NCBI GenBank assembly: GCA_963813815.1
Contig: CAWFAD010000012.1
Location: forward strand, 58,142 to 122,141
Reading direction: 5' to 3'
Length of the DNA stretch: 64,000 nucleotides
From: an uncultured bacterium
Lineage (GTDB): Bacteria; Krumholzibacteriota; Krumholzibacteriia; Krumholzibacteriales; Krumholzibacteriaceae
Below are positions 3,997 through 58,018 of the stretch, piece after piece (positions within the stretch are counted from its first letter, which is position 1; each line of letters opens with the position of its first letter). The notes beneath the pieces were generated by a model. It worked only from the letters and a program-made list of their open reading frames with translations, ran no database searches and had not been told where the DNA came from. Position numbers and translations under genes: made by a program.

Positions 3997-4094
3997 TGGC
4001 GGGAATGTGTGGGAATCGAACCCACCCCGGATGGTTTTAGCACCCGGCGGAAGGATTTGAAGTCCTCGAGGTCCACCAGAACCCATCCATTCCC
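3997..4094 (-). tRNA. selC: tRNA-Sec (anticodon UCA), selC
   Basis: The minus-strand sequence is GGGAATGGATGGGTTCTGGTGGACCTCGAGGACTTCAAATCCTTCCGCCGGGTGCTAAAACCATCCGGGGTGGGTTCGATTCCCACACATTCCCGCCA. The anticodon loop CTTCAAATC matches E. coli selC, with UCA reading UGA. It has a long variable arm, a 7 bp acceptor stem GGGAATG/CATTCCC and a T-loop GGTTCGATTCC. It is 98 nt, longer than a canonical tRNA. Confidence 0.7.
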
Positions 4095-18934: not shown

Positions 18935-19585
18935 AAGGCTGGCGCCGTTGTACCTGTACCTTCGGTACCATGTCGAATGTGGCATGCTGTTGGCCGGTTA
19001 CAGTGCTTCAAATTCAATGATGATTCATACCACGATCATCAGACATGACCGCGCTGCATAGCCTAGCCACACGTGGTCTGCAGCGGCGTAAGGTCACGCG
19101 AATCAAAAGCACAAAAAATGTGCAACTTTTAGCATCCAGAGGTTTGGATATTTCCACAGTACATAATTGAGGGGATCATCTTCATGCACCACTCTTGGCA
19201 GCCGCAAGGTCATCCCGGGTGGTATCACGCTGCAGTGTGGTACTTATATGATATTACTTTTTTTTGGCTGAAAGGCTGGCGCCGTTGTACCCCTGTACCC
19301 TTTCAGGTACCATGTCCGAATGTGGCATGCTGTTGGCCCGGTTAACCAGTGCTTCAAATTCAATGATGATTCATACCACGATCATCAGACATGACCGCGC
19401 TGCATAGCCTAGCCACACGTGGTGCTGCAGCGGCGTAAGGTCACGCGAATCAACTGCACAAAAAATGTGCAACTTTTGCAGCACCAGAGGTTTGGATATT
19501 TGAGTATAATTAATATTAGAATTAGATATTTTATATTTATATTTATAATTATATTTATCTATTTAATATATTTTTTTTTTTTATA
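18914..19585. repeat. Low-GC (about 40-45%) insertion containing an imperfect tandem duplication of a roughly 250 bp unit, plus an AT-rich low-complexity tail
   Basis: Unit 1 is about 18914..19155 and unit 2 about 19248..19504. Both begin ATGATAT(T)ACTTTTTTTGCTGAAAGGCTGGCGCCGTTGTACC and end GGTTTGGATATTT. They differ by scattered 1-2 nt indels. Each unit has a short hairpin GCACAAAAAATGTGC. The tail at 19505..19585 is TATAATTAATATTAGAATTAGATATTTTATATTTATATTTATAATTATATTTATCTATTTAATATATTTTTTTTTTTT. The flanking DNA is about 68% GC. Confidence 0.6.
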
Positions 19586-20394
19586 CCTCGCCGCCGGCTT
19601 CATGGTCGCCGGGGTCGCGACCGTCTTTTACCGTCGCCGGCTCACCGGCGTCCGGCTCGCCGCCGAGCTCAGGGCGGCGCACAAGGCGCAGATGTCGATC
19701 ATGCCCCAGTCGGATCCGGCGATCGAGGGGTTCGAAATCTCCGGAACCTGCATCCCCGCCTACGAGGTCGGAGGCGATTTCTACGATTACTTCTGGCTCG
19801 GGAAGGATCGCCGCCGCTTCGGCATCGCCGTCGGCGACGTCGCGGGGAAGGCCATGAACGCCGCGATGATATCGGTCATGTCGAGCGGCATGCTCTCCTC
19901 GAAGGTCGATAACGCCGTTTCGGTCGCCGGCCTCATGCGCGACCTCAACGGGCCGCTCTTCAACAAGACCGACGATTACGTGTTCACGGCGCTCTGTCTT
20001 CTCTCGCTCGACGCCGGAGCGAAATCTGGCGTCTTACAGCGTCGCCGGATTCAACAACCCCATTCTCAAATCCCGCGCGGGCGTGCGTTCGCTCCCCGGA
20101 CGGGGACCGCAGTTCCCCCTCGGGAGCCTCGAGAACATCGCCTACGAGGAGACGGCCCTGCGGCTCGAACGTGGAGACGTTCTCCTTGTGTTTTCGGACG
20201 GACTCATCGAGGAGCGGAACAAGGCGGGCGAATTCTTCGGCCTCGAGCGCCTGCGCGCGCTTCTCGAGACCCTCGACACGGCGGGCATGACGGCGCGCGG
20301 GATCAAGGAGTCGATCGTCTCGGAGGTGCTCGCCTTCGCCGGAAAGCGGCGCCATGACGACGACATCACGCTCGTCGTCGTGAAGGCCGCCTAA
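19586..20394 (+). pseudogene. PP2C-family (SpoIIE/RsbU-like) Ser/Thr phosphatase domain. The 5' end is truncated by the insertion and there is a +1 frameshift near 20030. It is probably the C-terminal part of the upstream sensor gene
   Basis: Frame of ORF 19419..20357 reads LAAGFMVAGVATVFYRRRL (a TM helix) then AELRAAHKAQMSIMPQSD ... GGDFYDYFWL ... GIAVGDVAGKAMNAAM. It then shifts into ORF 20083..20394, which reads SYSVAGFNNPILKSRAGVRSLPGRG ... VLLVFSDGLIEERN ... DDITLVVVKAA. Confidence 0.6.
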
Positions 20395-21967: not shown

Positions 21968-22279
21968 AAACGCACAATATTCAGAATATTATGATTTATC
22001 TGATTTGTCAATGGTCAATGATTGAGCGTTATCCCTCGCCGCGGGAATCATAACGCGGATGCGCGGCTCCGCCGTAGCTCTCTCAAAGGCATGGCATTCG
22101 ACGCAATTATTCCATCAATAGATATTTATGATGACTTTAACTCTAGCTTATGCTACCCTAGCTGTGACTGGGGGATTCTTAATTCATTTCTAAATGGGTC
22201 TAGCCGTATTGAGGGAACTCTTTCCGAAACCTCAATCCGCCTTCCGCGGGTTGAGTGGTTATCCAAGGGGGGATCGTTG

Positions 22280-25200
22280 ATGAAAAAGGTGTTAGCCCTC
22301 GTGATCGGCGTCGGCCTCATTGCCCTGCTCATCGGCTCGGTCGCAGCCCGCGAAATTGCGAATCCCGGCAAGCGTCCCGTGAGAGATTGGTCGAGCGATG
22401 AGTCGCTCGATCTCGTCGATCCGGGTCTGCGCGGCCTCTACGAGACCGCCGCCGCGGATACGTACTGCATGGTCTGGTACACCTTTGAGACCAACAACTG
22501 GATGGGTTGGACCCCGATCGACAACACGGCTCAGGTGGATACGTTTTTCCACGTGGACGACTTCGCCGGCCTCGGCACCTCCTGGACTCCGCTCGAGGGC
22601 TTGAAGTCGATGTGGTGCGGAGCCGAAGAGGACCTTGATGATCCGTACATGTGCTCGTGGGAGTACGCCCCTGGCTACGGCAACTACTGGAACCAGATGC
22701 TGACGAGCGATCCGTTCGCCTTCCAAGGCACGATCAGCTTCACGTATACGATCAGGTGGGATTCGGAGCCCGGATACGATTACACTCGGATCGAGTACGA
22801 CGCTGGCGGCGGCAGCTGGGTGGAGCTTGCTGAGTTCGACGACCTCGGCGACAGCACGGGAACCGTTCTCGTGTACACGACGCAGGCTCGGACGAAGCTT
22901 CGCTTCCACTTCACGGCCGACGGCGCCTGGAGCGATCAGGACGGCCTGTGGAACACGAACGGCGCGTGCGTCGTCGACGCTCTGCGCATTCAGGACGCCG
23001 CGACGCTCAACCTGTACGAGAACTTCGAGACCGCGGCCGTCGACGCGAAAGACGCGGGGATCTGGCACGCGCGTCCGGAGACTCCATACGGCAGCTTCGC
23101 CGGCCTGTACACCGGCCTGACCGACAAGGATCCGTGCGGCGACAACTTCGGCACGCAGGTCGTGTTCTTCGTCGGGTCGAGCGAGATCAGCACGAGCTAC
23201 CCGGGTCTCTTCGACACTCCGTTCTGCACGGGCCCCGGCGGCACCAGCGCACCGTGCCAGGATGAGGGCATCGTGTCTCCGATCATCGACATGACGATGT
23301 ACTCGACGCTCTGCAACAACGTTCAGGACGGCACCATCCCGTCTACCGATCTGAACCTGCTCGGAGGCGCCATTCTCCGGTTCACCTCGTACCGCGATCT
23401 GCCGCTCTCGAACCTCGTGTTCTACACGTGGTCCGTCCGGTCGATCATCGACGGGTGCCCCGGCCAGTGGGTGGACGATAACTTCGTTTACTACGGCGCC
23501 GACATGGATTACATCTATGGAGGAGCCGGCGACGTGAGCAAGTTCATCGGCGGCAACGATCCGGTGCAGATCAGAATCGGTTGCACGGACATGTGCGACG
23601 CCTGGTACAACACGTACGGCAACTGCGCGGCGCACACTCCGTCGCCCTGGGTCGACAACGTGCGCCTGTACCGGTACAAAACCGCCGGTCCGCAGTGGGG
23701 ATCGCGCGACCTGGATTTCTTCCAGGACAACTTCCCCGAGGCTGAGTACAACATCGAGAGCTACGTCCGCTGCGACGCGGCGAACGACATCTTCGCGGGC
23801 GACAACCCGGTCATCCATCCGGGCGACTCGCTCGTGGTCGATTGCACGTCGATTATCGCGGACGGGCTCAAAGAGGACAACACCTTCGGCGGCGCCTCCG
23901 TGTACATCAACGTGAGAGCCAGCTACATCGGCCCCGCGCCGACGAAACCGGCTCTCAGCGGCGCCGCGCTCGCCGGATCGGTTCTCGTCAACGACGATCC
24001 GGAGACGTACGTGAACTTCAACTACGTGAGCACGAGCGGTGCCTGGACGAAGATTCAGTGCGACACCGCCCGGACGGGCGCCGGCATCGTCGACGGCAAG
24101 TACATGGTCGACCTCAACGACGAGCTCTTCACCCGCGGCTACAAGATCGACTACTACTTCACGGCCACGGACAAGAAGAACGTCACTTCGGCGTACCCGC
24201 GCTACTCGCGCTCGGGCCCGCCGTACTTCGAGTGGACCTGTCTCCCGACGCTCAACACCGACGTGCTCTTCGTAGATGACGGCTACGTCGAGCTGTACTG
24301 GCTGCCGGTCTTCGACGCCGTGCTGGCTCTGCCGGACGCCAAGATCGACATCTACGACGTGAACGCCCCGAGCTCGGGCGTCTCCAACGGTCCGGGAAGC
24401 CGTGCGAAGAACTACCAGCTGAGAAGCACGTACGAGACGATCGTGTGGGATTGCGGCGCCTACGAGTCCGTGACGATCAGCGAGGGCACGGCCCACAGCG
24501 ACAAGTCGAACGACTGCCAGATGCTCGTCGACTGGATGAGCCTCTCGGAGCACCAGTGCGGCCTCTGGGTCTGCGGCGACGACATCGCCTTCGACCTGGA
24601 CGGCGCGGCCGGCGGCTCCGCGCTTCTCCTCATGAGCTCCTGGTGCGGCGTTGACTACGTCGCGACGAGCTACTTCGAAGAGACGGGCGGCCGGTTGAGC
24701 GGCGGCGTCGTGACGCCGCTTCTCACGGGCAACACCGACTCGGGCATCTTCGTTCACAGCGGCGTGCCCGACAAGCTGTACGCCTCCGGCGCCTGCTTCA
24801 TCATCAACCAGTTCGACTGCCTCGAGAAGACGGCCGGCGGCAAGTACGCTCTGAGCTACCCTGCGTATCTCGGAACGAACTACTACGGCGCCATCTCGAA
24901 GGCGACCACGAACACGAGCGGGTTCCCGGTCCGCACCATGTGGTTCGGATTCAGCTACGCGTTTGTTCGTGACGACGTCAACACGGCTCCGATGGACAAG
25001 TTCGAGATCGCGAACGACGTTCTCGTCTGGATGCAGAACGAGACGAACCTCGTGATTTCGGGCAACGAGACTCCGTCGGCCTACGCGCTCGCGCAGAACT
25101 TCCCGAACCCCTTCAACCCGTCGACGACCATCCGGATCGACATGCGGGAGAAGGGCTTTGTGACGTTGAAGATCTACAACGTCGCCGGGCAGCTCGTGCG

Positions 25201-25354
25201 CACGCTCGTTGACGGCGTGAAGGATGCGGGTTCCTACAACATCGCCTGGGACGGCATGAACGACCGTGGCGGCGCTGTGGCGAGCGGCATCTACTTCTAC
25301 AAGATGGAGACCAAGGACTTCAGCCAGACGAAGAAGATGGTCATGCTGCGGTAG
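22280..25354 (+). CDS. Large secreted protein (1024 aa) with a C-terminal T9SS (Por secretion) sorting domain
   Basis: A strong SD (AAGGGGGG) precedes the ATG at 22280. A signal peptide MKKVLALVIGVGLIALLIGSVAA follows. The C-terminus FPNPFNPSTTIRIDMREKGFVTLKIYNVAGQLVRTLVDGVKDAGSYNIAWDGMNDRGGAVASGIYFYKMETKDFSQTKKMVMLR matches the T9SS CTD (TIGR04183-like). The central domains are not assignable from sequence. Confidence 0.75.
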   Translation: MKKVLALVIGVGLIALLIGSVAAREIANPGKRPVRDWSSDESLDLVDPGLRGLYETAAADTYCMVWYTFETNNWMGWTPIDNTAQVDTFFHVDDFAGLGTSWTPLEGLKSMWCGAEEDLDDPYMCSWEYAPGYGNYWNQMLTSDPFAFQGTISFTYTIRWDSEPGYDYTRIEYDAGGGSWVELAEFDDLGDSTGTVLVYTTQARTKLRFHFTADGAWSDQDGLWNTNGACVVDALRIQDAATLNLYENFETAAVDAKDAGIWHARPETPYGSFAGLYTGLTDKDPCGDNFGTQVVFFVGSSEISTSYPGLFDTPFCTGPGGTSAPCQDEGIVSPIIDMTMYSTLCNNVQDGTIPSTDLNLLGGAILRFTSYRDLPLSNLVFYTWSVRSIIDGCPGQWVDDNFVYYGADMDYIYGGAGDVSKFIGGNDPVQIRIGCTDMCDAWYNTYGNCAAHTPSPWVDNVRLYRYKTAGPQWGSRDLDFFQDNFPEAEYNIESYVRCDAANDIFAGDNPVIHPGDSLVVDCTSIIADGLKEDNTFGGASVYINVRASYIGPAPTKPALSGAALAGSVLVNDDPETYVNFNYVSTSGAWTKIQCDTARTGAGIVDGKYMVDLNDELFTRGYKIDYYFTATDKKNVTSAYPRYSRSGPPYFEWTCLPTLNTDVLFVDDGYVELYWLPVFDAVLALPDAKIDIYDVNAPSSGVSNGPGSRAKNYQLRSTYETIVWDCGAYESVTISEGTAHSDKSNDCQMLVDWMSLSEHQCGLWVCGDDIAFDLDGAAGGSALLLMSSWCGVDYVATSYFEETGGRLSGGVVTPLLTGNTDSGIFVHSGVPDKLYASGACFIINQFDCLEKTAGGKYALSYPAYLGTNYYGAISKATTNTSGFPVRTMWFGFSYAFVRDDVNTAPMDKFEIANDVLVWMQNETNLVISGNETPSAYALAQNFPNPFNPSTTIRIDMREKGFVTLKIYNVAGQLVRTLVDGVKDAGSYNIAWDGMNDRGGAVASGIYFYKMETKDFSQTKKMVMLR

Positions 25355-25382: not shown

Positions 25383-25415
25383 AAAACGGCAGCCCATTCA
25401 CTGGGCTGCCGTTTT
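25383..25415. terminator. Bidirectional rho-independent terminator hairpin between the convergent T9SS cargo gene and the kinase gene
   Basis: AAAACGGCAGCCC-attcact-GGGCTGCCGTTTT is a perfect 13 bp stem flanked by A and T runs. It overlaps the last codons of the kinase at 25398. Confidence 0.5.
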
Positions 25416-27773
25416 CACATCCGCTTCTGCTCCGGGGAAACCGATGCGGCTCAAAATCTCCCACCAGCGCGGATCGGAACGCAGGCTGTCGAAGTACGGC
25501 TCGCTGTTCATGGACATTATTTGTATTGAGCGCGCCTGCAACGACTTTCTCAGGCAGGCAAATGCATTATCCCTATCGCCGAGCCCTGCGTACACCATGG
25601 CGGCTCCGTAAGGGTCGACGAACGCCTCCGCGGACTCCTTCTCGTACTCACGGAGCTCACGGCGCGCGATCTCGCGCTTCCCGGCGACGGCGTACACGAA
25701 TCCCGTCTGGCCGTCGAAACGGCCGGAGTATTTCGTCTCCAGAGTGTCGCATTGGGCCAATGCCTCGTCGAACTTTCCCTGCGCCGCAAGGCTCGTGGCG
25801 AGAAATATTCGCGAGACGTCGGCCAGCGTCGCCTTCGGCTCCATGGCGATATGCCGCCGCAGAGTGGCGTTGGCGTCGTCGTATCGTTTCGCATAAAAAT
25901 ACGTCCATCCGAGAAAGCTGATCGAATAGGCGGAAGATGCGTCGAGCTCGCACTGACGCTGCGCGAGATCGAGAGCCTCGTCGGTTCTCAACGCGGCCGC
26001 GAGATAGAGGATATAGTTTTTGAGCACCGGGATACTGCTTGGATTGAGCTCCAGGGCCCGTTTGTATTCGGCGTCCGCCGTCGACCAATTCCATTCGAAG
26101 AGGAATTTCGCGAGGGCGAGCGCCCCATGCGCTTCCGCGGACCGCCCGTCGAGCTGCACCGCTTTCTCCGCCGCGCGCAGGGCGTCGGTCGCGATCTCCC
26201 CCGGCGCGGCCTGTCCGTAGACGCATAGCATGCTGAGCGCATCGGCAAGCCCGGCGTTCGCGGGAGCGAAAGCAGGATCTATCTCGATTGCCCGTTGAAA
26301 CAGATCCGCGGCGGCGCGGTTCTTGGCACCGAGCAGCTCCGCGATTCCCCTCAAGTAAGCTTCCATGGCCTCGGGATCGGAGGATCCGACGCCTGCAAGA
26401 ATTTGCCGCTGCTCCGGCGTGAGCTTCGCCTTGATCTCGCGGGCGATCGATTCGGCTATTTCGTTCATCACGATCAGCGCGTCCTGCAGATCCCGGCGAT
26501 AGCTGTTCTGCCAGATCACCCGGTCCCGTTGAGCGCTGTAGAGCTTCGCCGTTATGACCATCCTCCTTCCATCGACGGTCAGCTCCGCCTCGACGAGTCC
26601 CTTCGCTTTGCTTTTTCTGCCGATTTCCTTGAGAGACTCGGCGCTTGCTTCGAATCGCCTCATGGTTCGATTCGAAATGACATTTACGCCGATCGATCCG
26701 AGGCTCACCGCGAGGCGATCGGTGAGACTGGCAGCCAGAAACGCCTTGTCGGGATCCTCCGAGCGATACTCGATGGGCAGCACGCCGATCGAATCTATCC
26801 TTTCGACCTTCGGGGCGAGGAGCGCGAGGCTACCCACTATGATCCCCGAGATGACAACCGCAGCCGCCGCGATGACCGCCGCGCGCTGCCAGGGACGGGC
26901 GCGGCGCCAGACTCGCTTGAGCCCTTTCGCGGGCGCAGCCTTCCCGGCGGGAAGCGCCTCCCGGTCTTTGGCCAGCGCATCGAGGTCGGCAACGAGCTCC
27001 TCCGCCTTCTGATACCTCCGCGCCGGGTCCCTCGCCAGCGCCTTGGCGACGATCCCATCGAGACCGGCGGGGATATCTCCGCCCTCTTTCGCAAGCGACG
27101 GCGCATCCTCGTTCAGAATCGAATACAGCAGCGCCGCTTCGTAGTCCGCCCCAAACGGCATCCGCCCCGACACCATCTCGTACAGCACCACGCCCAACGC
27201 CCAGATGTCGCTTCGATGATCCGCCTCCCTCCCCTGCACCTGCTCCGGCGACATATAGGCCACCGTCCCCATCGTCGTCCCCGTCCGCGTGAGCTTCGTC
27301 GCGCCCGAGACCTTCGCCAAACCAAAGTCCATGAGCATCGGCCTGCCCTCGGCCGTCAGCATCACGTTCGCGGGCTTGATGTCTCGGTGAACGATGCCTT
27401 TGGCGTGGGCAGCGGCGAGGCCATCCCCGATCTGCCGGGCGATCGAGAGCGCCTCATCGAGGGGGAGCGCGCCTTCACCGATACGATCCTTGAGGCTCCG
27501 CCCCTCGATGTGAGCCATAGCAATGAATGTCCGGCCTTCCGCCTCGGCGATCTCGTAGACGGGGCAAATGTTGGGGTGAAGGAGCGCCGCGGCCGCCCGG
27601 GCCTCGTGCACGAGCCGGGCGCGGTCTTCATCGCGAGCTATAGAGTCAGGAGGAAGAAACTTGAGCGCCACGGTCCGGCCGAGGGTGAGATCTTCCGCCC
27701 GATAGACCACGCCCATCCCCCCCTCGCCGAGCTTCGAGAGAACGCGATAGTGTCCTATGGTCCGCCCGATCAT
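25398..27773 (-). CDS. Ser/Thr protein kinase with a TM segment and C-terminal TPR repeats (paralogue 1 of 3)
   Basis: The 791 aa protein begins MIGRTIGHYRVLSKLGEGGMGVVYRAEDLTLGRTVALK and carries HRDIKPANVML, DFGLAK and GTVAYMSPEQ. It has a TM helix AAVIAAAAVVISGIIVGSLALLA and a TPR-like C-terminal half. Confidence 0.85.
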   Translation of the reverse strand: MIGRTIGHYRVLSKLGEGGMGVVYRAEDLTLGRTVALKFLPPDSIARDEDRARLVHEARAAAALLHPNICPVYEIAEAEGRTFIAMAHIEGRSLKDRIGEGALPLDEALSIARQIGDGLAAAHAKGIVHRDIKPANVMLTAEGRPMLMDFGLAKVSGATKLTRTGTTMGTVAYMSPEQVQGREADHRSDIWALGVVLYEMVSGRMPFGADYEAALLYSILNEDAPSLAKEGGDIPAGLDGIVAKALARDPARRYQKAEELVADLDALAKDREALPAGKAAPAKGLKRVWRRARPWQRAAVIAAAAVVISGIIVGSLALLAPKVERIDSIGVLPIEYRSEDPDKAFLAASLTDRLAVSLGSIGVNVISNRTMRRFEASAESLKEIGRKSKAKGLVEAELTVDGRRMVITAKLYSAQRDRVIWQNSYRRDLQDALIVMNEIAESIAREIKAKLTPEQRQILAGVGSSDPEAMEAYLRGIAELLGAKNRAAADLFQRAIEIDPAFAPANAGLADALSMLCVYGQAAPGEIATDALRAAEKAVQLDGRSAEAHGALALAKFLFEWNWSTADAEYKRALELNPSSIPVLKNYILYLAAALRTDEALDLAQRQCELDASSAYSISFLGWTYFYAKRYDDANATLRRHIAMEPKATLADVSRIFLATSLAAQGKFDEALAQCDTLETKYSGRFDGQTGFVYAVAGKREIARRELREYEKESAEAFVDPYGAAMVYAGLGDRDNAFACLRKSLQARSIQIMSMNSEPYFDSLRSDPRWWEILSRIGFPGAEADVKTAAQ

Positions 27774-27809
27774 TTCGCTTGTCCCGCGGCAGAGTGATCG
27801 ATCGCCCTT

Positions 27810-30236
27810 CTACTGTTCCATAATGCCGGCTCTCGCCAGCAACCCTTTGTAGCGCGGATCTCTTTTGAGGAAGACGAGCCAGGGCGTATTGATTCGCCTC
27901 GCAAGATCACGAGGACGATCTGCGTATTCTATCTCGAGAGATGTATACGCTTCAGTGATCCTTCCGAGACAGCAATATGCGAATGCCTTTTTGCCGGCAA
28001 CCTTCTCATGGGCGAGCGCCGATTCTACGTGCGCTCCCTCGCCGAGCCAATAGGAGGCGGCAGCGAGCGTCGATGGACTCCAGTAGCCTCGCGGCGCCAG
28101 AGCGACCACCTCGCGGAAGCATTTCCTCGCCTGGACCGTATCGCCGACATTCACGTACCAGGCTGCCAGAAGGGCCCTGTGATTTTCGTTTACTGCGGCC
28201 GCTATCTCAACATCTCTGAGAGCCTCGCGATACCTGCCTCTTGTCGCGTACACCGAGCTCCGATAGAGGCGGCTGTACACCTCGGCGCTGTCTTCCGCGA
28301 TCGCCCGGGTCAGGTAGACGATCGCGCTGTCCATCATGAAGCAATCGAGAAATATGATCCCGACGCCGCCCGCATACCCGGTGTTCAAGGGATCAAGCAT
28401 CTGCGCGAGCTTCGCTTCGCTCACCGCCTTGTCGCAATCGCCCTCCATCGAGAGGAAAAACGCATAGCTGTTGTGAAACGCCGCCAGGTTCGGATCGAGA
28501 GCGAACGTCCGCTGGAAAAGCTCTTCCGCTGCCGCGGAATCGGCCTCGAAGGAATACTTGTAATCGGCGAGAGCTCCGAGCGCCTCGGGCAGGTTCGGAT
28601 CGAGCGCGAGCGCGCGGTCGATGTTGAGCTTCGCCTTGGGAACGGCCTCCTCGGCCGGGAGGATATCAACCCAGGCATAGACGCTGTAGGCGAATGCGAG
28701 CCCGGCATATGCCTCGGCGAACGTGGAATCGATCGCGACCGCTCTTTCGAGATACTCTATCGCCTTCGATGCACTGTCGACATCCGTCCTGGAACGATAA
28801 CCCATTCCCAACAGGTAGGCTTGCATGGCTTTGGGATTCACGGGGCGCCTCGCCGCAAGCGATGCCCGGCTTCCCGCTCGCATCTCGACGCCAAGCGCAG
28901 TCGCCACCTCACGCGCCACTTCATCGAGACGCTGGTGCAGATTTTGCATGTCACAGCTGAGGGTGCGAGCGTAAAGCTGCCTATCCTTCGCTGCTTCGTA
29001 AACCTGGATGCTCAGCCGCACGGCGTTCCCCGAAAATATGCACGAGCCCGTGATCAACGCTCTTGCATCCACCTTCCGGGAAATCTTGTCCATCGGCAGG
29101 TCGCTCCCCTTGAATTCCATCATCGTCTGCGGTGATCGAATCTGAACTCCTTCGAGGGATCCGAGCGCGCCTGAGAGAACGATTTCGAGCCCATTGATCA
29201 TTTCATCCTTCGATAAATCTCCCGTGAGGTTCTTGAGGGGCAGGATGCCGATCGAGTCGATCGACTCCGCCCCCGGCGATGATATCTTCATAATCCCGAA
29301 GGCGAGGGCCCCCGCGACGATGCAGAGCGCGCCGATAACGGCCGCCCTCTGCCATGGCCGCGACCGGCGCCAGACTCGCTTGAGCCCTTTCGCGGGCGCA
29401 GCCTTCCCGGCGGGAAGCGCCTCCCGGTCTTTGGCCAGCGCATCGAGATCCGCAACAAGCTCCTCCGCCTTCTGATACCTCCGCACCGGGTCCTTCGCGA
29501 GCGCCTTGGCGATGATCCCATCGAGGCCGGCAGGAATGTCTCCGCCCTCCACCGCAAGCGGCTCCGGATCCTCGTTCAATATCGAATACAGCAGCGCCGC
29601 CTCGTAGTCCGCCCCGAACGGCATCCGCCCCGACACCATCTCGTACAGCGCCACGCCCAACGCCCAGATGTCGCTTCGATGATCCGCCTCCCTCCCCTGT
29701 ACCTGCTCCGGCGACATATAGGCCACCGTCCCCATCGTCGTCCCCGTCCGCGTGAGCTTCGTCGCTCCGGAGACCTTCGCCAAACCGAAGTCCATGAGCA
29801 TCGGCCGGCCATCGGCCGTCAGCATCACGTTCGCAGGCTTGATGTCGCGGTGCACGATCCCCTTGGCGTGGGCGGCGGCGAGCGCGTCGGCCGTCTGTCG
29901 GGCGATCGAGAGTGCTTCGTCGAGCGGCATCGGACCCTCGGCGATGCGATCCTTGAGGCTCCGCCCCTCGATGTGGGCCATCGAAATGAACGTGCGCCCA
30001 TCCGCTTCAGCTATCTCGTGAATCGGGCAGATGTTCGGATGAAGAAGCGCCGCGGCGGCCCTCGCCTCGTGCACGAGGCGGGCGCGGTCTTCCTCTCGGG
30101 CCACCGAATCAGGCGGGAGAAACTTGAGCGCCACGGTCCGACCGAGGGTGAGGTCCTCGGCCCGGTAGACCACGCCCATCCCCCCCTCGCCGAGCTTCGA
30201 GAGAATGCGATAGTGGGAGATCTTCTGTCCGATCAT
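27810..30236 (-). CDS. Ser/Thr protein kinase with TM segment and TPR repeats (paralogue 2 of 3)
   Basis: From the internal Met MIGQKISHYRILSKLGEGGMGVVYRAEDLTLGRTVALKFLPPDSVAREEDRARLVHE. The kinase domain is almost identical to paralogues 1 and 3 for about 300 aa. The C-terminal TPR region is divergent. Confidence 0.85.
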   Translation of the reverse strand: MIGQKISHYRILSKLGEGGMGVVYRAEDLTLGRTVALKFLPPDSVAREEDRARLVHEARAAAALLHPNICPIHEIAEADGRTFISMAHIEGRSLKDRIAEGPMPLDEALSIARQTADALAAAHAKGIVHRDIKPANVMLTADGRPMLMDFGLAKVSGATKLTRTGTTMGTVAYMSPEQVQGREADHRSDIWALGVALYEMVSGRMPFGADYEAALLYSILNEDPEPLAVEGGDIPAGLDGIIAKALAKDPVRRYQKAEELVADLDALAKDREALPAGKAAPAKGLKRVWRRSRPWQRAAVIGALCIVAGALAFGIMKISSPGAESIDSIGILPLKNLTGDLSKDEMINGLEIVLSGALGSLEGVQIRSPQTMMEFKGSDLPMDKISRKVDARALITGSCIFSGNAVRLSIQVYEAAKDRQLYARTLSCDMQNLHQRLDEVAREVATALGVEMRAGSRASLAARRPVNPKAMQAYLLGMGYRSRTDVDSASKAIEYLERAVAIDSTFAEAYAGLAFAYSVYAWVDILPAEEAVPKAKLNIDRALALDPNLPEALGALADYKYSFEADSAAAEELFQRTFALDPNLAAFHNSYAFFLSMEGDCDKAVSEAKLAQMLDPLNTGYAGGVGIIFLDCFMMDSAIVYLTRAIAEDSAEVYSRLYRSSVYATRGRYREALRDVEIAAAVNENHRALLAAWYVNVGDTVQARKCFREVVALAPRGYWSPSTLAAASYWLGEGAHVESALAHEKVAGKKAFAYCCLGRITEAYTSLEIEYADRPRDLARRINTPWLVFLKRDPRYKGLLARAGIMEQ

Positions 30237-30247
30237 TCCAAGCGCCT

Positions 30248-33121
30248 TTAGAGCTCGGCCACCCTCTTCTTCGCATCGATGAGCTGCGGCCGGTCCCCAT
30301 CCGCTTCGGACCACATCTCGAGGAACCTGGCGTATTCCTTTTTCGCCTCCGCCGGACGTTTCATCTCTTCGTAGAGCTTGCCGAGCTCGTAGTGCGACAG
30401 AGCGTGCCCGCCGTAGATCCGCAACAATTCCTTGTGCACTTTCGCGGCCTCATCGAAACGTCTCTGCATCGCGTAAACGCGCGCCCGCGCGGTTCGGTAA
30501 TCGATATCGATGTATCCTCCGAATGGAATGCCTCCCCGCTGAAGCTGGTCGAGGAACTTTAGGGCTGTTTTAGGATCGTGGTCCGCCAGCGCGGCGTAGG
30601 CCTCGATCTCGAGCGCATCGTATTGAGCAATTCCACCTTGTTTGCCGGTTTGGCCGGCGAGATTTTTCGCCGCCTCTCGCGCTCCCTTCACATCGCCGAG
30701 CATGGCCAGAGCCCTGCCGAGTGGCCGAGGGTAATCGTTCATCGTGTCGGACGACGCCCATTGCCGATACAGGTCGCAAACCTCCTGAGGCCGCTCCATG
30801 GCGATCAGCATGCGAAACTCGGGCATGTCCATATCGGGCAAAACGGTGTATTCCCGAATCAAGTCGCGGGCCTTTCGATATTGGCCCTTTTCAACGTAAA
30901 GGGACGCGAGACACATATCGAAAGGACTCAGAACGATCAGTTCCCATCGTCTGCGCGGACCAATATTGCTCTGGCCGAGGATCTCTTCGAGAATATGGAT
31001 TGCTTCAGCTACGTCGCCTCGCTGATACGCGCAGTAGCTCAAAACCGCACGGTTCCACTTGGGATCCAGCTCCAGGGCCTTTTGAAACGCCGCTTCTGCG
31101 CTATCCGGCTTCCCGAGGGCGAGATATCTACGCCCCAGCTCATCCCAGTTATTCGGAACTTCCGGATGTCGTTCCGCCAGCAATCGCGTCGCCCGTAGCG
31201 CTTCCTCCGTTCGCCCCATGCACACAAGCGAAGATACGTACATAGGACCTCCGAAAATCGGATCATCCGGATACAGGCGCAATCCCGTTTCGCAAACCGC
31301 CAGCGCTTCGCCGAATTCCCAAACCATAAACATGTCTGTGAACATATCCCGCATGACTTGGCGATAATCAGGCCAACGAGCGAGAAGCCTCCGGTACGCT
31401 GCAATAATGGCCGTATGCGAGGTCTCGCGCCAGGCTTCCAGCCTCATCCGATCCTTCACGCCAAGATTTTCCCTCAGCATCCACGCTTTATCCGAATATT
31501 CCTTGGACTTTCCCCTTGTGGTGGGCGAAATACCCCCGAACATTTGGTAGGCGTTTGCGAGCTCCATATATGCCAGGGCAAACGTCGAATCCTCTGTGAC
31601 AGCTTTCTCCAACTCAGCGATCGCATCATCTCCACGGTACTCTTCGCACGCGAGCAAACCAGATATATAGTGCTGGTAGGCTCTCAGAGAATTAGTCGTG
31701 ATACTCTCCACCGGCTTCGGCGCGATGGTCGCCTTGACCCCGCAGGCGCTCGCAATCCGCGGAATCGCCTTCGCGATGATCTCATCCGCTATACCCTGAA
31801 GTCCCGATCCCTCCGCATCTCCCGCGCCGACGTTCTGCCCGTTTCGTACATCGACCAGCCTCCAGCTCACGATTCGATTCGGTCCCGTCCGCCCGATCTT
31901 GGCAACGAGGAAGAGCGTCGCCTTGACCTGCCGGGCGAGGTCGAATATCTGGCTGTCATCGATCGCGCCCCGGGGGGAGCCGTAGAGACGGCGGCGAAAA
32001 TCGTGGATCAGCTCGGAGCTTATCACCCGGATGACATCCGCCTCCGTAAGACTGGTGCTCACGAGCTCGGTGAGGGCCGCCGATGTGATGAGACTGTCGG
32101 GAGCATCGATGTCCCGAAAATCCATTACCGCTATCGAAAACGAAGCGGCTTCGGGCTCCCCGTGCCGCATCTGGACTATCGACAGTGCGGCAATGGCTCC
32201 CATGACTATGAGCGATGCGACCGCCGCCGCGCGCTGCCAGGGCCGGGCGCGGCGCCAGACCCGCTTGAGCCCCTTCGCGGGGATCGCCTTGCCCGCGGGC
32301 AGCGCTTCACTGTCCCGCGCCAGGGCCTCAAGATCCGCAACAAGCTCCTCGGCCTTCTGGTATCTCCTCGCCGGATCCTTCGCCAATGCCTTCGCGATGA
32401 TCCCGTCAAGGCCGGCGGGGATGTCGCTCCCCTCTCCCGCAAGGGGCGCGGGATCTTCGTTCAATATCGAGTACAGCAGCGCCGCCTCGTAGTCCGCCCC
32501 GAACGGCAGCTTCCCCGACGTCATCTCGTAGAGCACCACGCCCAACGCCCAGATGTCGCTCCGGTGATCCGCCTCCCTCCCCTGCACCTGCTCCGGCGAC
32601 ATGTACGCCACCGTCCCCATCGTCGTCCCCGTGCGCGTCAGCTTCGTCGTCCCCGAGACCTTCGCCAGCCCGAAGTCCATCAGCATCGGTCGGCCGTCGG
32701 TCGTGAGCATGACGTTGGCGGGCTTTATATCCCGGTGGATGATCCCCTTGGCGTGGGCGGCAGCCAGACCATCTCCTATCTGACGAGCGATCGAGAGCGC
32801 CCCATCCAGGGGAAGCGGTCCCTCTGCGACGCGATCCTTGAGGCTCCGCCCCTCGATGTGGGCCATCGATATGAACGTGCGGCCCTCGGCTTCAGCGATC
32901 TCGTAGATGGGGCAAATGTTGGGGTGAAGGAGCGCCGCGGCCGCCCGGGCCTCGTGCACGAGCCGGGCGCGGTCTTCCTCGCAAGCCACGGAGTCGGGCG
33001 GAAGGAACTTCAGCGCCACCGTCCGGCCGAGGGTGAGATCCTCGGCCCGATAGACCACACCCATCCCCCCCTCGCCGAGCTTCGAGAGAATGCGGTAGTG
33101 GGAAATCGTATTTCCTATCAT
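30248..33121 (-). CDS. Ser/Thr protein kinase with TM segment and TPR repeats (paralogue 3 of 3)
   Basis: From the internal Met MIGNTISHYRILSKLGEGGMGVVYRAEDL ..., giving 957 aa. An alternative start is at 33151. The kinase domain is near-identical to the other two. The C-terminal TPR/sensor region is longer and divergent. Confidence 0.85.
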   Translation of the reverse strand: MIGNTISHYRILSKLGEGGMGVVYRAEDLTLGRTVALKFLPPDSVACEEDRARLVHEARAAAALLHPNICPIYEIAEAEGRTFISMAHIEGRSLKDRVAEGPLPLDGALSIARQIGDGLAAAHAKGIIHRDIKPANVMLTTDGRPMLMDFGLAKVSGTTKLTRTGTTMGTVAYMSPEQVQGREADHRSDIWALGVVLYEMTSGKLPFGADYEAALLYSILNEDPAPLAGEGSDIPAGLDGIIAKALAKDPARRYQKAEELVADLEALARDSEALPAGKAIPAKGLKRVWRRARPWQRAAAVASLIVMGAIAALSIVQMRHGEPEAASFSIAVMDFRDIDAPDSLITSAALTELVSTSLTEADVIRVISSELIHDFRRRLYGSPRGAIDDSQIFDLARQVKATLFLVAKIGRTGPNRIVSWRLVDVRNGQNVGAGDAEGSGLQGIADEIIAKAIPRIASACGVKATIAPKPVESITTNSLRAYQHYISGLLACEEYRGDDAIAELEKAVTEDSTFALAYMELANAYQMFGGISPTTRGKSKEYSDKAWMLRENLGVKDRMRLEAWRETSHTAIIAAYRRLLARWPDYRQVMRDMFTDMFMVWEFGEALAVCETGLRLYPDDPIFGGPMYVSSLVCMGRTEEALRATRLLAERHPEVPNNWDELGRRYLALGKPDSAEAAFQKALELDPKWNRAVLSYCAYQRGDVAEAIHILEEILGQSNIGPRRRWELIVLSPFDMCLASLYVEKGQYRKARDLIREYTVLPDMDMPEFRMLIAMERPQEVCDLYRQWASSDTMNDYPRPLGRALAMLGDVKGAREAAKNLAGQTGKQGGIAQYDALEIEAYAALADHDPKTALKFLDQLQRGGIPFGGYIDIDYRTARARVYAMQRRFDEAAKVHKELLRIYGGHALSHYELGKLYEEMKRPAEAKKEYARFLEMWSEADGDRPQLIDAKKRVAEL

Positions 33122-33193
33122 GCGATAAACCCGAAATGAAAGCCGCTTCACATCGAAAAAAGCGCTGCCGCCGAAATCGGCCCCCGAGCTCCC

Positions 33194-33526
33194 CTAGGTG
33201 TCTCTTCGGGCCGCGTACGCAAACTGCGAAAAGTACCGACGCCAGACGGCATCGGTCGACTTGAGCTCGTTTTCTCCGTAAAAATAATCGACGAGCGCTT
33301 CTCTCATCCGGGCAATTTCTCTTAGATGCGAGGAACGAATCGGGTATTGCAGCGAAAGATCGATCAATTCGAGGGCCCGTTCGATCGCCTTTTCGCTGTA
33401 CGTGGCGTTTCCCCTCTCCCGCCAGGAAATCGCGCGCTCCACCTCGCTCCCGATGTTCGCCATGCGCTCGAGAAGCGGCATATCCTTCCATCGTCCCGCG
33501 GCCAGATTCTTGTGCTGATAGCTCAT
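33194..33526 (-). CDS. Hypothetical small protein
   Basis: The ORF reads from the internal Met MSYQHKNLAAGRWKDMPLLERMANIGSEVERAISWRERGN. I did not recognise a family. The coding call rests on ORF length and position only. Confidence 0.3.
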   Translation of the reverse strand: MSYQHKNLAAGRWKDMPLLERMANIGSEVERAISWRERGNATYSEKAIERALELIDLSLQYPIRSSHLREIARMREALVDYFYGENELKSTDAVWRRYFSQFAYAARRDT

Positions 33527-33684
33527 TGCACCATTATAAACGAACCTCCCGCACTGGCAAGACGCATTCTCGTTGGCAGCTCTGGGCCGAGGCAACGAAC
33601 GAAACGGCAGCCCTGAGGGGAGCTGCCGTTTCCGTGTCGATCACAGGACGCCGCGAGGCGCTGTCGTCCCGCGGCGAACCGCCG

Positions 33685-35193
33685 CTATTTCATCTTCGGA
33701 AGCTTCACGAGCCCCTTCTTCTGCAGGAGCTGGAACTTGCTGCGGGACTCCGTGATCATCCTGTCGGCCTTGCTGATGAGCTGGTCCCAGGTGAGGTCGA
33801 TGCGCGCCACGCCCTGCTCGACCGCCTTGCGGCCCACGGCCGCCGCCTCGCGCGGATAGACCTCCACTTCGTCCATCGTCGGGATGAGGTAATCCTCGCG
33901 AAGCCCCTTGTCCTCGGCGACGCGCGCGAGCTCGCGGGCGGCCGCGATGCACATCTCGTCGGTGATCGTGCGGGCCATAACGTCGAGCGTTCCGCGGAAG
34001 ATGCCCGGGAAACCGAGGGAGTTGTTGACCTGGTTCGGGAAGTCGCTACGGCCGGTGGCGACGACCCTCGCGCCCGCCTCCTTCGCCTCCCACGGCCAGA
34101 TCTCGGGGATCGGGTTGGCGCAGACGAACACGATCGCGTCCTTCGCCATCCGCGCGATCCATTCCTTTTTGATCGTGTCGGGGCCCTGCTTCGAAAGGGC
34201 GATGAGCACGTCGGCCCCCTCGATCGCGCGCGGCACGTCTCCCGTTCTCCCCTCGCCGTTCGTCTTCTGCGCCATCTCCCATTTCTCTTTCCAATCCTGC
34301 TTGAGCTCCTCCTCGCGGCCGAGGTGGAGGATCCCCTTGCTGTCGCACATGATGACGTTCTTCGGCGAAACGCCGGCGAGCATGATCATGCGGGCGATGC
34401 AGATGTTCGCGGCCCCCGCGCCCACCATCGTCACCTTGACCTTCGAGATATCCTTGCCGACGATCTTCACCGCGTTGATGAGACCCGCTACGGTAACTGC
34501 GGCCGTGCCCTGCTGGTCGTCGTGCCACACGGGGATGCGGCATTCGCGCCGGAGCGTATCGAGAACGCGGAAGCACTTGGGCTGCGAAATATCCTCGAGG
34601 TTGATGCCGCCGAAGGAGGGCTGCAGGAGCTTCACGAACTCGATGAGCTTGTCCGGGTCCTTCGTATCGACGCAGATCGGGAAGGCGTCGACCCCGCCGA
34701 GATACTTGAAGAGCATCCCCTTGCCCTCCATGACCGGCAGGCCCGCCTCGGGACCGATGTCGCCGAGTCCGAGAACGCGCGTGCCGTCCGAGACCACGGC
34801 GACGAAGTTCCCCTTGTTCGTGTGCTCGAAAACCTTTTCGGGGTTATCGCGGATATCGAGGCACGGCTTCGCGACTCCGGGGGTGTACCAGATCGCGAAA
34901 TCGTCGAAGCTGCGGATGCAGGCCTTCGGCATGATCTCGATCTTCCCCTTGTAGAAGGGGTGCATGATCATGGCGTCGATCCCGGGCTGCTTGGCCTTCT
35001 CGACGAGCTCTTCCTTCGTGACTGGTTTCATGATCTTCGGAGCGGGCTTTTTCGGCGCCGCTTTCCGCGGGGCCGGTTTCTTGGCGGGCTTCGCCGCCTT
35101 TTTCGCGGCCTTCTTCGGGGACTTCTTCACGGCCTTTTTCGGCGTTTTCTTCGCCGGCTTTTTCTTCGAGGCCTTCGCCTTCTTCGGGCTCAT
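33685..35193 (-). CDS. maeB: NAD(P)-dependent malic enzyme with an unusual N-terminal Lys/Ala/Pro-rich tail
   Basis: The malic enzyme N- and NAD-binding domains are present (IRDNPEKVFEHTNKGNFVAVVSDGTRVLGLGDIG ... TMVGAGAANICIA). A roughly 60 aa in-frame tail SPKKAKASKKKPAKKTPKKAVKKSPKKAAKKAAKPAKKPAPRKAAPKKPAPK precedes the catalytic core. The start is placed at the Met of MSPKK and could be further downstream. Confidence 0.8.
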   Translation of the reverse strand: MSPKKAKASKKKPAKKTPKKAVKKSPKKAAKKAAKPAKKPAPRKAAPKKPAPKIMKPVTKEELVEKAKQPGIDAMIMHPFYKGKIEIMPKACIRSFDDFAIWYTPGVAKPCLDIRDNPEKVFEHTNKGNFVAVVSDGTRVLGLGDIGPEAGLPVMEGKGMLFKYLGGVDAFPICVDTKDPDKLIEFVKLLQPSFGGINLEDISQPKCFRVLDTLRRECRIPVWHDDQQGTAAVTVAGLINAVKIVGKDISKVKVTMVGAGAANICIARMIMLAGVSPKNVIMCDSKGILHLGREEELKQDWKEKWEMAQKTNGEGRTGDVPRAIEGADVLIALSKQGPDTIKKEWIARMAKDAIVFVCANPIPEIWPWEAKEAGARVVATGRSDFPNQVNNSLGFPGIFRGTLDVMARTITDEMCIAAARELARVAEDKGLREDYLIPTMDEVEVYPREAAAVGRKAVEQGVARIDLTWDQLISKADRMITESRSKFQLLQKKGLVKLPKMK

Positions 35194-35260
35194 CGATCTA
35201 CCTCCCGGGGTCAATCCCGACTTCGGAACGCTCGCCGCTCCATATCCGATTCGAACGCTA

Positions 35261-41006: not shown

Positions 41007-41085
41007 TGGAGCTGGCGATCGGAATTGAACCGATGACCTGCGCATTACGAGTGCGCTGCTCTACCAGCTGAGCTACGCCAGCTCC
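41007..41085 (-). tRNA. tRNA-Thr (anticodon CGU)
   Basis: The minus-strand sequence is GGAGCTGGCGTAGCTCAGCTGGTAGAGCAGCGCACTCGTAATGCGCAGGTCATCGGTTCAATTCCGATCGCCAGCTCCA. The acceptor stem is GGAGCTG/CAGCTCC, the anticodon stem-loop is GCGCA-CTCGTAA-TGCGC, and the T-loop is GGTTCAATTCC. Ends are approximate to +/-2 nt. Confidence 0.75.

Positions 41086-57940: not shown

Positions 57941-58018
<78 letters not shown>

Follow-up and report, generated by a model that had tools for sequence, protein, structure and literature searches.

How do three neighbouring receptor kinase genes come to share a closely similar kinase module while their sensor tails have little in common? The question is raised by a locus on contig CAWFAD010000012.1 (assembly GCA_963813815.1) of an uncultured bacterium of the Krumholzibacteriaceae, of which a stretch of 64,000 nucleotides (nt), here called the window, was analysed. 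An initial annotation had described three adjacent minus-strand genes of 791, 808 and 957 amino acids (aa), with gaps of 36 and 11 nt between them, and the listing and translation of open reading frames (ORFs) gave the same picture. We refer to these genes as K1, K2 and K3, respectively, K3 being the first gene of the array. The explanation that we consider probable is that the 900-nt modules at the starts of these genes evolve in concert through recurrent recombination, that the tails are ancient and have been exchanged between genes, and that the products function as receptor kinases.

A common module on three divergent tails

The starts used here are the ATGs that give the common N-terminus MIG..I.HYR.LSKLGEGGMG, which was aligned across K1–K3 and all homologues. 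When the region was compared with itself, three 300-nt copies were found in register, 2463 and 2885 nt apart, and a tblastn search with the K1 module returned exactly three copies within the 64-kb window (E 1e-175 to 1e-180) and no additional kinase copies there. Over codons 1–300, the three genes are 90–91% identical in aa sequence and 84–88% in DNA, with 64–74% identity at third codon positions; K3 is 84% identical to both K1 and K2 in DNA and 90–91% in aa. The modules differ pairwise at 109–142 of 900 positions (12–16%), and the longest identical runs between them measure 83, 69 and 39 nt. Upstream of the ATG there is no similarity among the three genes. At codon 300, the point where the transmembrane helix starts, identity drops from about 90% to 17–37% inside a single 30-codon window. 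The common N-terminal block of about 300 aa that had been annotated is therefore present and sharply bounded, but calling it almost identical was an overstatement.

The tails are 19–27% identical to each other and rich in TPRs. They differ, as had been noted initially, and yet some relationship remains: homology is detectable between the K1 and K2 tails (26% identical, E 1e-34), and the fold plan of the K3 tail is predicted to be like that of the other two despite the absence of a BLAST match between them. Similar antisense ORFs recur three times (26295–27797, 29679–30251 and 31358–33139), all containing the string ...IRLPPL.LLRRH..HRPHRRPR.... This recurrence had been taken to show nucleotide-level identity, which is wrong given the values above; the ORFs are just reverse frames of the repeated module in GC-rich DNA. 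The public K3 protein, P0076 (938 aa), begins at the internal Met of GEGGMGVV, so that the first 19 residues and part of the Gly-rich loop are missing. This start was probably mis-called, leaving the protein too short.

Probable gene conversion of the kinase module

Relatives were collected by protein search, exact-protein look-ups and a metagenome scan with a clade-specific alignment. Synonymous divergence (dS) was calculated by the NG86 method. Because this estimate is saturated for highly diverged tails, identity at four-fold degenerate sites, taken at conserved codons, was used in its place. Trees were built by neighbour-joining on simple distances, with 300 bootstraps.

The module dS is 0.44 for K1/K2, 0.67 for K1/K3 and 0.72 for K2/K3, with a nonsynonymous divergence (dN) of 0.05–0.06. 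The resulting dN/dS of about 0.1 points to purifying selection on all three copies. The paralogous tails, by comparison, have a dS of at least 1.8 and are saturated. At four-fold sites, the modules of the window are 0.62–0.75 identical and the tails 0.28–0.46, with chance at about 0.34, and corresponding values were obtained for the within-genome paralogues of all arrays compared (modules 0.62–0.75, tails 0.26–0.48). Orthologous pairs provided a control for rate. Between K1 and its ortholog in locus L001 (W_K1/L001_b), the four-fold identity is 0.63 for the module and 0.62 for the tail, with dS of 0.74 and 0.76, respectively; for L087_a/L088_a, the four-fold values are 0.74 and 0.78 and the dS values 0.42 and 0.43. 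The K1 and L001_b tails have a dN of 0.155 against the dS of 0.76, indicating that orthologous tails are under purifying selection.

The two halves of the genes also give incongruent trees. In the kinase-module tree, K1 and K2 group together in 100% of bootstraps, the L001 genes a and b (with L124) in 91–95%, L086 a, b and c in 98–99%, and the window with L001 (and L124) in 99–100%, while groupings by K1, K2 or K3 tail type have 0%. In the tail tree, the K1, K2 and K3 types are each supported at 100%, and the groupings K1+K2, L001 a+b and L086 a+b+c have 0%. Restricting the module tree to codon positions 1+2, or RY-coding the third positions, left the tail-type groupings at 0–1%. In DNA, the K1 module is 88% identical to that of K2 and 83% identical to that of its ortholog L001_b. 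Since the K1/K2 module dS of 0.44 is lower than the 0.74 for K1 and its ortholog, at least this homogenisation took place later than the split from the L001 lineage.

The informative sites within the modules are clustered overall (runs test p = 0.0002). The 83-nt run that is identical in K1 and K2 is a candidate for a recent conversion tract, and 19 consecutive informative sites shared by K1 and K2 occur in one run; elsewhere there is a block of sites shared by K1 and K3, and these two genes are identical over a run of 69 nt (Table 1). By the distribution of these sites, the modules are mosaics of tracts from different partners. The G+C content at third codon positions (GC3) is 0.80–0.84 in the modules and 0.67–0.74 in the tails of K1–K3, a difference that has the same direction in most clade members and is compatible with either GC-biased conversion or stronger codon bias.

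Taken at the level of sequence, the hallmarks of concerted evolution were found: paralogues that are closer to each other than to orthologues (except for K3), incongruent trees, a drop in dS that is confined to the module when controlled for rate, and mosaic tracts. The proposal in the initial annotation that gene conversion homogenises the kinase modules while the sensor tails remain distinct is thus supported by the tree incongruence, the excess identity at four-fold sites and the mosaic tracts.

Several observations weigh against this interpretation or narrow it. The relatives are short metagenome contigs, and L001 and L124 were assumed to come from one organism from their common sample and similar coverage. 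The trees are distance-based rather than model-based. The module GC3 lies 10–17 points above that of the tails, so that synonymous sites are somewhat more often identical by chance. A group confined to the window that unites K3 with K1 and K2 has a bootstrap of only 4%, and in these comparisons the K3 module resembles a positional ortholog of the one in L124; conversion after speciation is therefore clear for K1 and K2 only. The module dS of 0.44–0.72 implies that the events are old and infrequent, and not ongoing at a high rate. Finally, in comparisons with distant genomes (W_K2/L086_b and W_K3 with L086_a, L086_c, L002_a and L003_a), the modules have a four-fold identity of 0.50–0.59 versus 0.34–0.44 for tails of the same type, a difference that is not expected under strict orthology. 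Either tails of one type arose before the species diverged, or recombination of modules takes place between related genomes as well.

Age and exchange of the sensor tails

Each tail type has counterparts in other genomes, at 76% identity for the K1 type (L001), 56% for the K2 type (L086) and 50–57% for the K3 type (L086/L002), so the paralogues predate these lineages. Because the tails are old, the recent duplication that the initial annotation had put forward is not supported, and with the module dS values given above the homogenisation was not very recent either. In L001 the genes follow the order of the window: the C-terminus of a K3-like protein comes first, then another kinase (P0004), then the K1 ortholog P0002, whose tail is the 76% match. 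L086 contains three tandem genes with K3-, K2- and K3-type tails.

Throughout the clade, the module is 80–91% identical whatever the tail type, with tail identities between 30% and 78%. A profile scan with the whole kinase module gave L003 (81%) as the sole close relative among the matches listed. Also among the matches listed, tandem same-strand kinase arrays of two to six genes are common in contigs of Ignavibacteriota, Bacteroidota, Gemmatimonadota and Acidobacteriota; those with three to six genes include the metagenome-assembled genomes L005, L011, L021, L022, L032, L054, L096 and L099. In arrays from other phyla with tails that are 22–30% identical, the kinase domains are 54–63% and the juxtamembrane segments 20–35% identical. 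Where the kinase domains of an array are very similar, the tails are similar as well; the array in L054 (Pyrinomonadaceae), for example, consists of three whole-gene near-duplicates, with kinase domains 85–90% and tails 77–81% identical. In these sequence comparisons, the clade of the window is an outlier, having similar modules on dissimilar tails.

Tail exchange was assessed by BLASTN of the window against syntenic relatives. In L124, the malic enzyme gene (89% identical) is followed by two extra genes, after which the similarity runs unbroken at 86.5% via a small gene, orf110, and the spacer into the K3 module. The similarity ends at window position 32211, next to the end of the K3 module at 32222, and the L124 gene goes on with a different tail type (P0005). 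In L001, a similarity of 80% starts in the last part of the K3 tail, continues across the 11-nt spacer and the K2 module, ends at window position 29333 (module end 29337), and restarts exactly at the K1 ATG, from where all of K1 is covered at 80.5%. The stop at the end of the K2 module and the restart at the K1 ATG indicate that the middle tail was replaced. As the similarity breaks at the boundary between module and tail in two syntenic relatives, whole sensor tails have been exchanged, and the location of the breakpoints indicates that the repeated modules act as recombination substrates and that the arrays are dynamic. In L122, orf110 is followed by one K3-type kinase gene and a convergent homologue of the type IX secretion system (T9SS) protein found next to K1; by comparison, the K2+K1 segment of the window is extra.

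Could the similarity of the modules have arisen without conversion, if ancient duplications were followed by extreme purifying selection on the module and by drift of the tails? The low dN/dS of the module and its clade-wide identity regardless of tail type are in line with this, and the genome-wise clustering is weakened when codon positions 1+2 alone are used. Selection on the protein, however, leaves the excess identity of the modules at four-fold sites unexplained, close ortholog pairs being equal in both halves, and it explains neither the K1/K2 dS below that of the K1 ortholog pair, nor the clustered mosaic tracts, nor a tree incongruence of 0% versus 100%. We consider it quite unlikely. 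Another explanation is that an ancestral module replaced those on the existing tails in a single event and that descent has been vertical ever since. It would fit that K3 groups not with K1 and K2 but with the L001/L124 modules, and that the module dS for the K3 pairs (0.67–0.72) is near the ortholog value of 0.74. The genome-specific groups K1+K2, L001 a+b(+L124) and L086 a+b+c nevertheless require events after the lineages split, the K1/K2 dS is again too low, one and the same module carries tracts from different partners, and the exchange of tails left boundary breakpoints in two comparisons, so that we regard a single replacement as unlikely. Recent lineage-specific duplications followed by very fast divergence of the tails, perhaps under positive selection, would account for the tandem layout and the short gaps, and the dN/dS of 0.5–0.7 between paralogous tails looks high, but these estimates are saturated. 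The tails are closer to those of other genomes (76%, 56% and 50–57%) than to each other (19–27%) and their types are supported at 100%; orthologous tails are under purifying selection, and paralogous tails are at chance level at four-fold sites. This possibility therefore appears very improbable.

Two further alternatives concern the reality of the array and its role. The contig, of 249,420 bp, is derived from a metagenome, and 900-nt repeats that have up to 83 identical nt in a row can entangle the graphs of a short-read assembly, so that the array might have arisen by collapse, expansion or a chimeric join around the repeat. Misassembly is nonetheless very unlikely, judging from the sequences, because the copies differ at 12–16% of their positions and lead into three different full-length, in-frame tails, and because the order of K3-like gene, kinase and K1 ortholog recurs in an independent ENA assembly (L001); there is a three-gene array in a JGI assembly (L086) as well, and all three copies are under purifying selection. 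Instead of being environmental receptors, the kinases could serve in anti-phage defence, as a module of the PD-T4-6 or MADS kinase type, since the PADLOC models for PD-T4-6 and mad6 match with E values of 1e-70 to 1e-94 and there is a match to the NCBIfam model MAD6. These matches are confined to the generic kinase domain (residues ~1–280) and do not extend over the full length, the MAD6 scores of 163–173 compare with a cutoff of 460, the proteins are predicted to be bitopic with periplasmic TolB-N-like and TPR domains, and the neighbouring genes code for metabolic enzymes and secreted or outer-membrane proteins, no defence genes having been found among them. We judged the matches to reflect generic kinase-domain likeness and consider a role in defence extremely unlikely. 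Recurrent conversion of the modules, combined with ancient and occasionally exchanged tails, remains the explanation that we prefer.

Receptor architecture, gene neighbourhood and function

All three proteins match the Pfam family PF00069 (Pkinase) with E values of 1e-47 to 1e-49 and 163–169 bits, versus a cutoff of 31.7, in addition to TPR families. K1, K2 and K3 contain the catalytic motifs GEGGMGVV (G-loop), VALK, HRDIKPAN, DFG and ...MSPE, and a Thr-rich activation loop, TKLTRTGTTMGT. The catalytic motif positions are invariant in 63 homologues. The AlphaFold2 model of K1 (mean pLDDT 90.8) comprises a kinase domain (residues 1–270), a poorly ordered linker, the transmembrane helix, an α/β domain and a solenoid of helical repeats. 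The best Foldseek matches to the kinase domain were S. aureus Stk1 and M. tuberculosis PknA and PknB, with target-normalised TM scores of 0.87–0.90, 34–38% identity and E values of 1e-16 to 1e-18. By domain score, motifs and the bilobal fold of the model, all three are intact Hanks-type (eukaryotic-like) Ser/Thr kinases.

The basic motif GLKRVWRR(A/S)RPWQR, with the conserved pattern GLKR.WRR.RPWQR, is found just before the transmembrane helix. The net charge is +7 or +8 ahead of the helix and 0 or −1 behind it; by this charge difference, the kinase is cytoplasmic and the tail lies outside. The single helix is followed by a TolB N-terminal-like α/β domain and a C-terminal TPR superhelix; a model of the K3 tail resembles TPR proteins and the TolB N-terminal domain. 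The TolB-like fold was found by structure comparison only, the isolated α/β segments giving nothing in the Pfam scan. Each protein is thus predicted, from sequence and model, to be a bitopic receptor Ser/Thr kinase, in which the Hanks-type kinase domain lies in the cytoplasm and is connected, through a strongly basic juxtamembrane segment and one transmembrane helix, to an ectodomain of TolB-N-like and TPR parts.

No NCBIfam model reaches its cutoff for K1–K3. The Stk1/PASTA model NF033483 scores 304–310 against a cutoff of 450 and covers only residues 7–272, and no PASTA domains were found in the Pfam scan, so that the proteins fall outside this family. Their tails weakly match the membrane sensor parts of the TIGR04510 cyclases and of the CadC and HilA models. 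The TIGR04510 match (29–78 bits, cutoff 400) involves no cyclase domain, and since these matches are far under the family cutoffs, they reflect a common module plan and not membership. Relatives of these kinases are labelled "TolB-like protein / predicted Ser/Thr protein kinase" by JGI, and kinase relatives at ~40% identity are labelled Candidatus Eisenbacteria.

With the PknB, Stk1 and PknA kinases, the proteins share an N-terminal cytoplasmic Hanks kinase, a juxtamembrane linker, one transmembrane helix and an extracytoplasmic sensor, but they lack PASTA domains, have the TolB-N-like and TPR ectodomain instead, and carry the basic motif before the membrane. The TIGR04510 "peptide modification system cyclase" and the CadC/HilA-like regulators have a transmembrane helix, a small α/β domain and a TPR solenoid in the same order, while the output here is a Ser/Thr kinase. 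The proteins are in this sense ordinary Hanks-type receptor kinases with a known kind of sensor module.

The pattern of domain-limited concerted evolution is likewise already known. In the mammalian tandem paralogous receptors TLR1 and TLR6, the transmembrane part and the intracellular signalling part belong to a block of ~300 aa that is closer between paralogues than between orthologues due to independent gene conversions in each lineage, while the ligand-binding part diverges, and the retention of a common module was interpreted there along the lines followed below (Kruithof et al. 2007, PMC2077338). Those receptors are eukaryotic and signal through a TIR domain, whereas the converted block described here excludes the transmembrane helix and involves three or more paralogues, including dispersed ones. 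The Campylobacter jejuni proteins Tlp2, Tlp3 and Tlp4 are bacterial transmembrane receptors. According to the available part of the account (PMC9769880), their signalling domains are identical and their periplasmic sensors ~30% identical, and the tree of the signalling domain follows the species tree while that of the sensor does not. They are methyl-accepting chemotaxis proteins, and their modules are fully identical rather than 84–88% identical in DNA; that part of the account does not describe tail-cassette breakpoints. Long-lasting concerted evolution in prokaryotes has been reported for 26 genes, mostly coding for subunits of stable complexes, in which paralogues within a genome are closer than orthologues, as ascribed to recurrent gene conversion; the word "kinase" is absent from the main text (Wang & Chen 2018, PMC6053082). 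Unlike in those genes, the homogenisation at this locus affects a single domain of a receptor that has several. A limited literature search found no description of such domain-limited homogenisation in bacterial Hanks-type Ser/Thr kinases.

Table 1. Positions within the window of the kinase genes, their parts and adjacent features.
Feature	Position	Strand	Remarks
K3, predicted receptor Ser/Thr kinase, 957 aa, first gene of the array	30248..33121	-	ORF; Pfam Pkinase E 1.8e-48, strong TPR matches
K2, predicted receptor Ser/Thr kinase, 808 aa	27810..30236	-	11 nt past K3 stop; identical to P0027
K1, predicted receptor Ser/Thr kinase, 791 aa	25398..27773	-	36 nt past K2 stop; identical to P0001
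K3 homogenised module, codons 1–300 (kinase domain and basic juxtamembrane segment), GLKRVWRRARPWQR	32222..33121	-	
K2 homogenised module, codons 1–300	29337..30236	-	DNA identity 88% to K1 module, 84% to K3 module
K1 homogenised module, codons 1–300	26874..27773	-	
K3 transmembrane helix, aa 298–316 (predicted)	32174..32230	-	Only hydrophobic window of the protein; net charge +8 in preceding 20 aa, −1 after
K2 transmembrane helix, aa 298–316 (predicted)	29289..29345	-	Net charge +8 before, 0 after
K1 transmembrane helix, aa 300–318 (predicted; AlphaFold2 helix 294–319)	26820..26876	-	
K3 extracytoplasmic tail: predicted TolB-N-like α/β domain, then long TPR solenoid	30248..32173	-	
K2 extracytoplasmic tail: predicted α/β domain and TPR	27810..29288	-	TPR matches; 56% identical to L086_b tail
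K1 extracytoplasmic tail: predicted α/β domain aa 328–446, TPR aa 453–790	25398..26819	-	AlphaFold2 model; 76% identical to L001_b/P0002 tail
83-nt run identical in K1 and K2, coding nt 790–872; K2 copy 29365–29447	26902..26984	-	Codon-shuffle p = 0.003
69-nt run identical in K1 and K3, coding nt 145–213; K3 copy 32909–32977	27561..27629	-	p = 0.0008
Perfect 13-bp hairpin AAAACGGCAGCCC-AGTGAAT-GGGCTGCCGTTTT, overlaps K1 stop codon	25383..25415	.	Read directly from sequence
orf110, conserved small gene, 72 nt upstream of K3	33194..33526	-	MSYQHKNLAAGRWKD...
Sigma-70-like promoter match TTGCCA-16-TATAAT	33533..33560	-	11/12 positions; ends 6 nt before orf110 ATG
Large secreted protein, convergent neighbour, T9SS C-terminal sorting domain	22022..25354	+	Pfam FlgD_ig, Por_Secre_tail

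The short gaps between the genes and the lack of a convincing terminator between them suggest that K3, K2 and K1 are probably co-transcribed. No obvious Shine-Dalgarno sequence precedes any of the three. The hairpin at the end of K1 is flanked by A and T runs and was absent from the consensus-scan matches; from its sequence and position, it likely serves as a terminator in both directions, for K1 and for the convergent T9SS-cargo gene, the true start of which is probably the internal signal peptide MKKVLALVIG. Upstream of K3, orf110 is possibly the first gene of the transcription unit, as judged from its position. It comprises 110 codons, has no match in Pfam, NCBIfam or PADLOC, is 87% identical in L124 (3268–3600) and 70% identical in L122 (7656–7988), and is located upstream of a clade kinase gene in all three loci. 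A DUF5674 gene, which the window lacks, precedes orf110 with an overlap of 4 nt in L122 and L124. The candidate promoter listed in Table 1 is a consensus match, and its distance of 6 nt from the orf110 ATG would imply a leaderless or near-leaderless mRNA.

Convergent genes for outer-membrane or secreted proteins repeatedly follow the clade kinase genes, and may hint at what the ectodomains monitor. A T9SS-sorted protein is in this position in the window and in L122 (12994–16002), where the homologue, 54% identical over 1072 aa, is convergent to the K3-type kinase gene. Convergent proteins with CarboxypepD_reg and outer-membrane β-barrel domains (TonB-dependent-receptor-like) are encoded in L087 (3331–6015 and 8574–11276) and L124 (6115–8781), and an ORF in L088 (11846–13924) was judged by eye to be TonB-dependent-receptor-like. 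In L002 (3–2255) and L123 (1020–3749), the K3-type kinase genes have a gene for a large WD40/β-propeller protein directly before them, with nSTAND1 in L123. The L001 and L002 kinase genes are followed by a small MazE/AbrB-like gene, and their neighbours are unlike those of the window.

The malic enzyme gene of the window (33685–35214, minus strand) is also present in L088 (2802–4313) and L124 (2–1057), with 93–95% identity in these two loci. Its product begins with a Lys/Ala/Pro-rich, histone-H1-like extension of ~60 residues in the window and in L088, and downstream of the gene the gene content differs among the window, L088 and L124. A Reg_prop/SpoIIE (PP2C) gene 5 kb away from the array, syntenic in L002, was considered as the cognate phosphatase and rejected, being disrupted in the window and absent near the L086, L122, L123 and L124 arrays. 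This gene, at 16527–20130 (plus strand), is a broken homologue (72% identical) of the one for the intact 1004-aa Reg_prop/Y_Y_Y/SpoIIE protein of L002, and its frame changes near 18797 and 20029. The insert that it carries, of ~680 nt at ~18910–19590, is low in GC, contains two copies of a ~340-nt unit (19001–19077 is 100% identical to 19347–19423), includes an AT-rich palindrome at 19513–19584, and gave nothing above noise in Rfam. The gene is probably a pseudogene disrupted by a small repeat element. The window also contains a selenocysteine tRNA gene (4001–4094, minus strand; Rfam tRNA-Sec, 71 bits) and ordinary tRNA genes at 41010–41082 and 57944–58016.

In our preferred explanation, recurrent homologous recombination among the paralogous modules, both within the array and with dispersed copies, holds them at 84–88% DNA identity, and conversion tracts stop at the transmembrane helix, where the homology stops. 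Homologous modules on both sides of each tail in an array have allowed whole tails to pass from one locus to another. By analogy with PknB, binding of a ligand or partner to the TPR ectodomain may control dimerisation and autophosphorylation of the Thr-rich activation loop. We infer that the three TPR ectodomains differ in the periplasmic ligands or proteins to which they bind. That a common kinase and juxtamembrane module has been kept suggests that the receptors have substrates, a phosphatase or heterodimer partners in common; shared downstream signalling by the three kinases is plausible. More tentatively, and with some doubt on our part, the modules might serve as portable homology arms for the exchange of sensor cassettes, perhaps coupled to the adjacent outer-membrane or secreted proteins. 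Double crossovers in the flanking 900-nt modules would then swap, insert or delete ectodomain cassettes between loci, possibly of related strains, and each ectodomain may monitor the outer-membrane or secreted protein encoded convergently beside it, be it a TonB-dependent-receptor-like barrel or a T9SS cargo. If this is true, cassette exchange reshuffles the receptor repertoire, with every new receptor still wired to the same kinase output.

There are practical consequences. Kinase-domain trees in lineages such as this one report the genome rather than the orthology group, and orthologs should be assigned from the tails. Public gene calls can err, as in the case of the K3 start at an internal Met, and 900-nt repeats with 84–88% identity are a hazard for short-read assembly and binning. 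For the kinases themselves, it is predicted from the conserved module and its juxtamembrane motif that the paralogues have substrates or a phosphatase in common, or form heterodimers. The locus shows how, in a bacterium that has many receptor Ser/Thr kinases, one common cytoplasmic signalling module can be kept while very different periplasmic sensors are maintained and occasionally exchanged.

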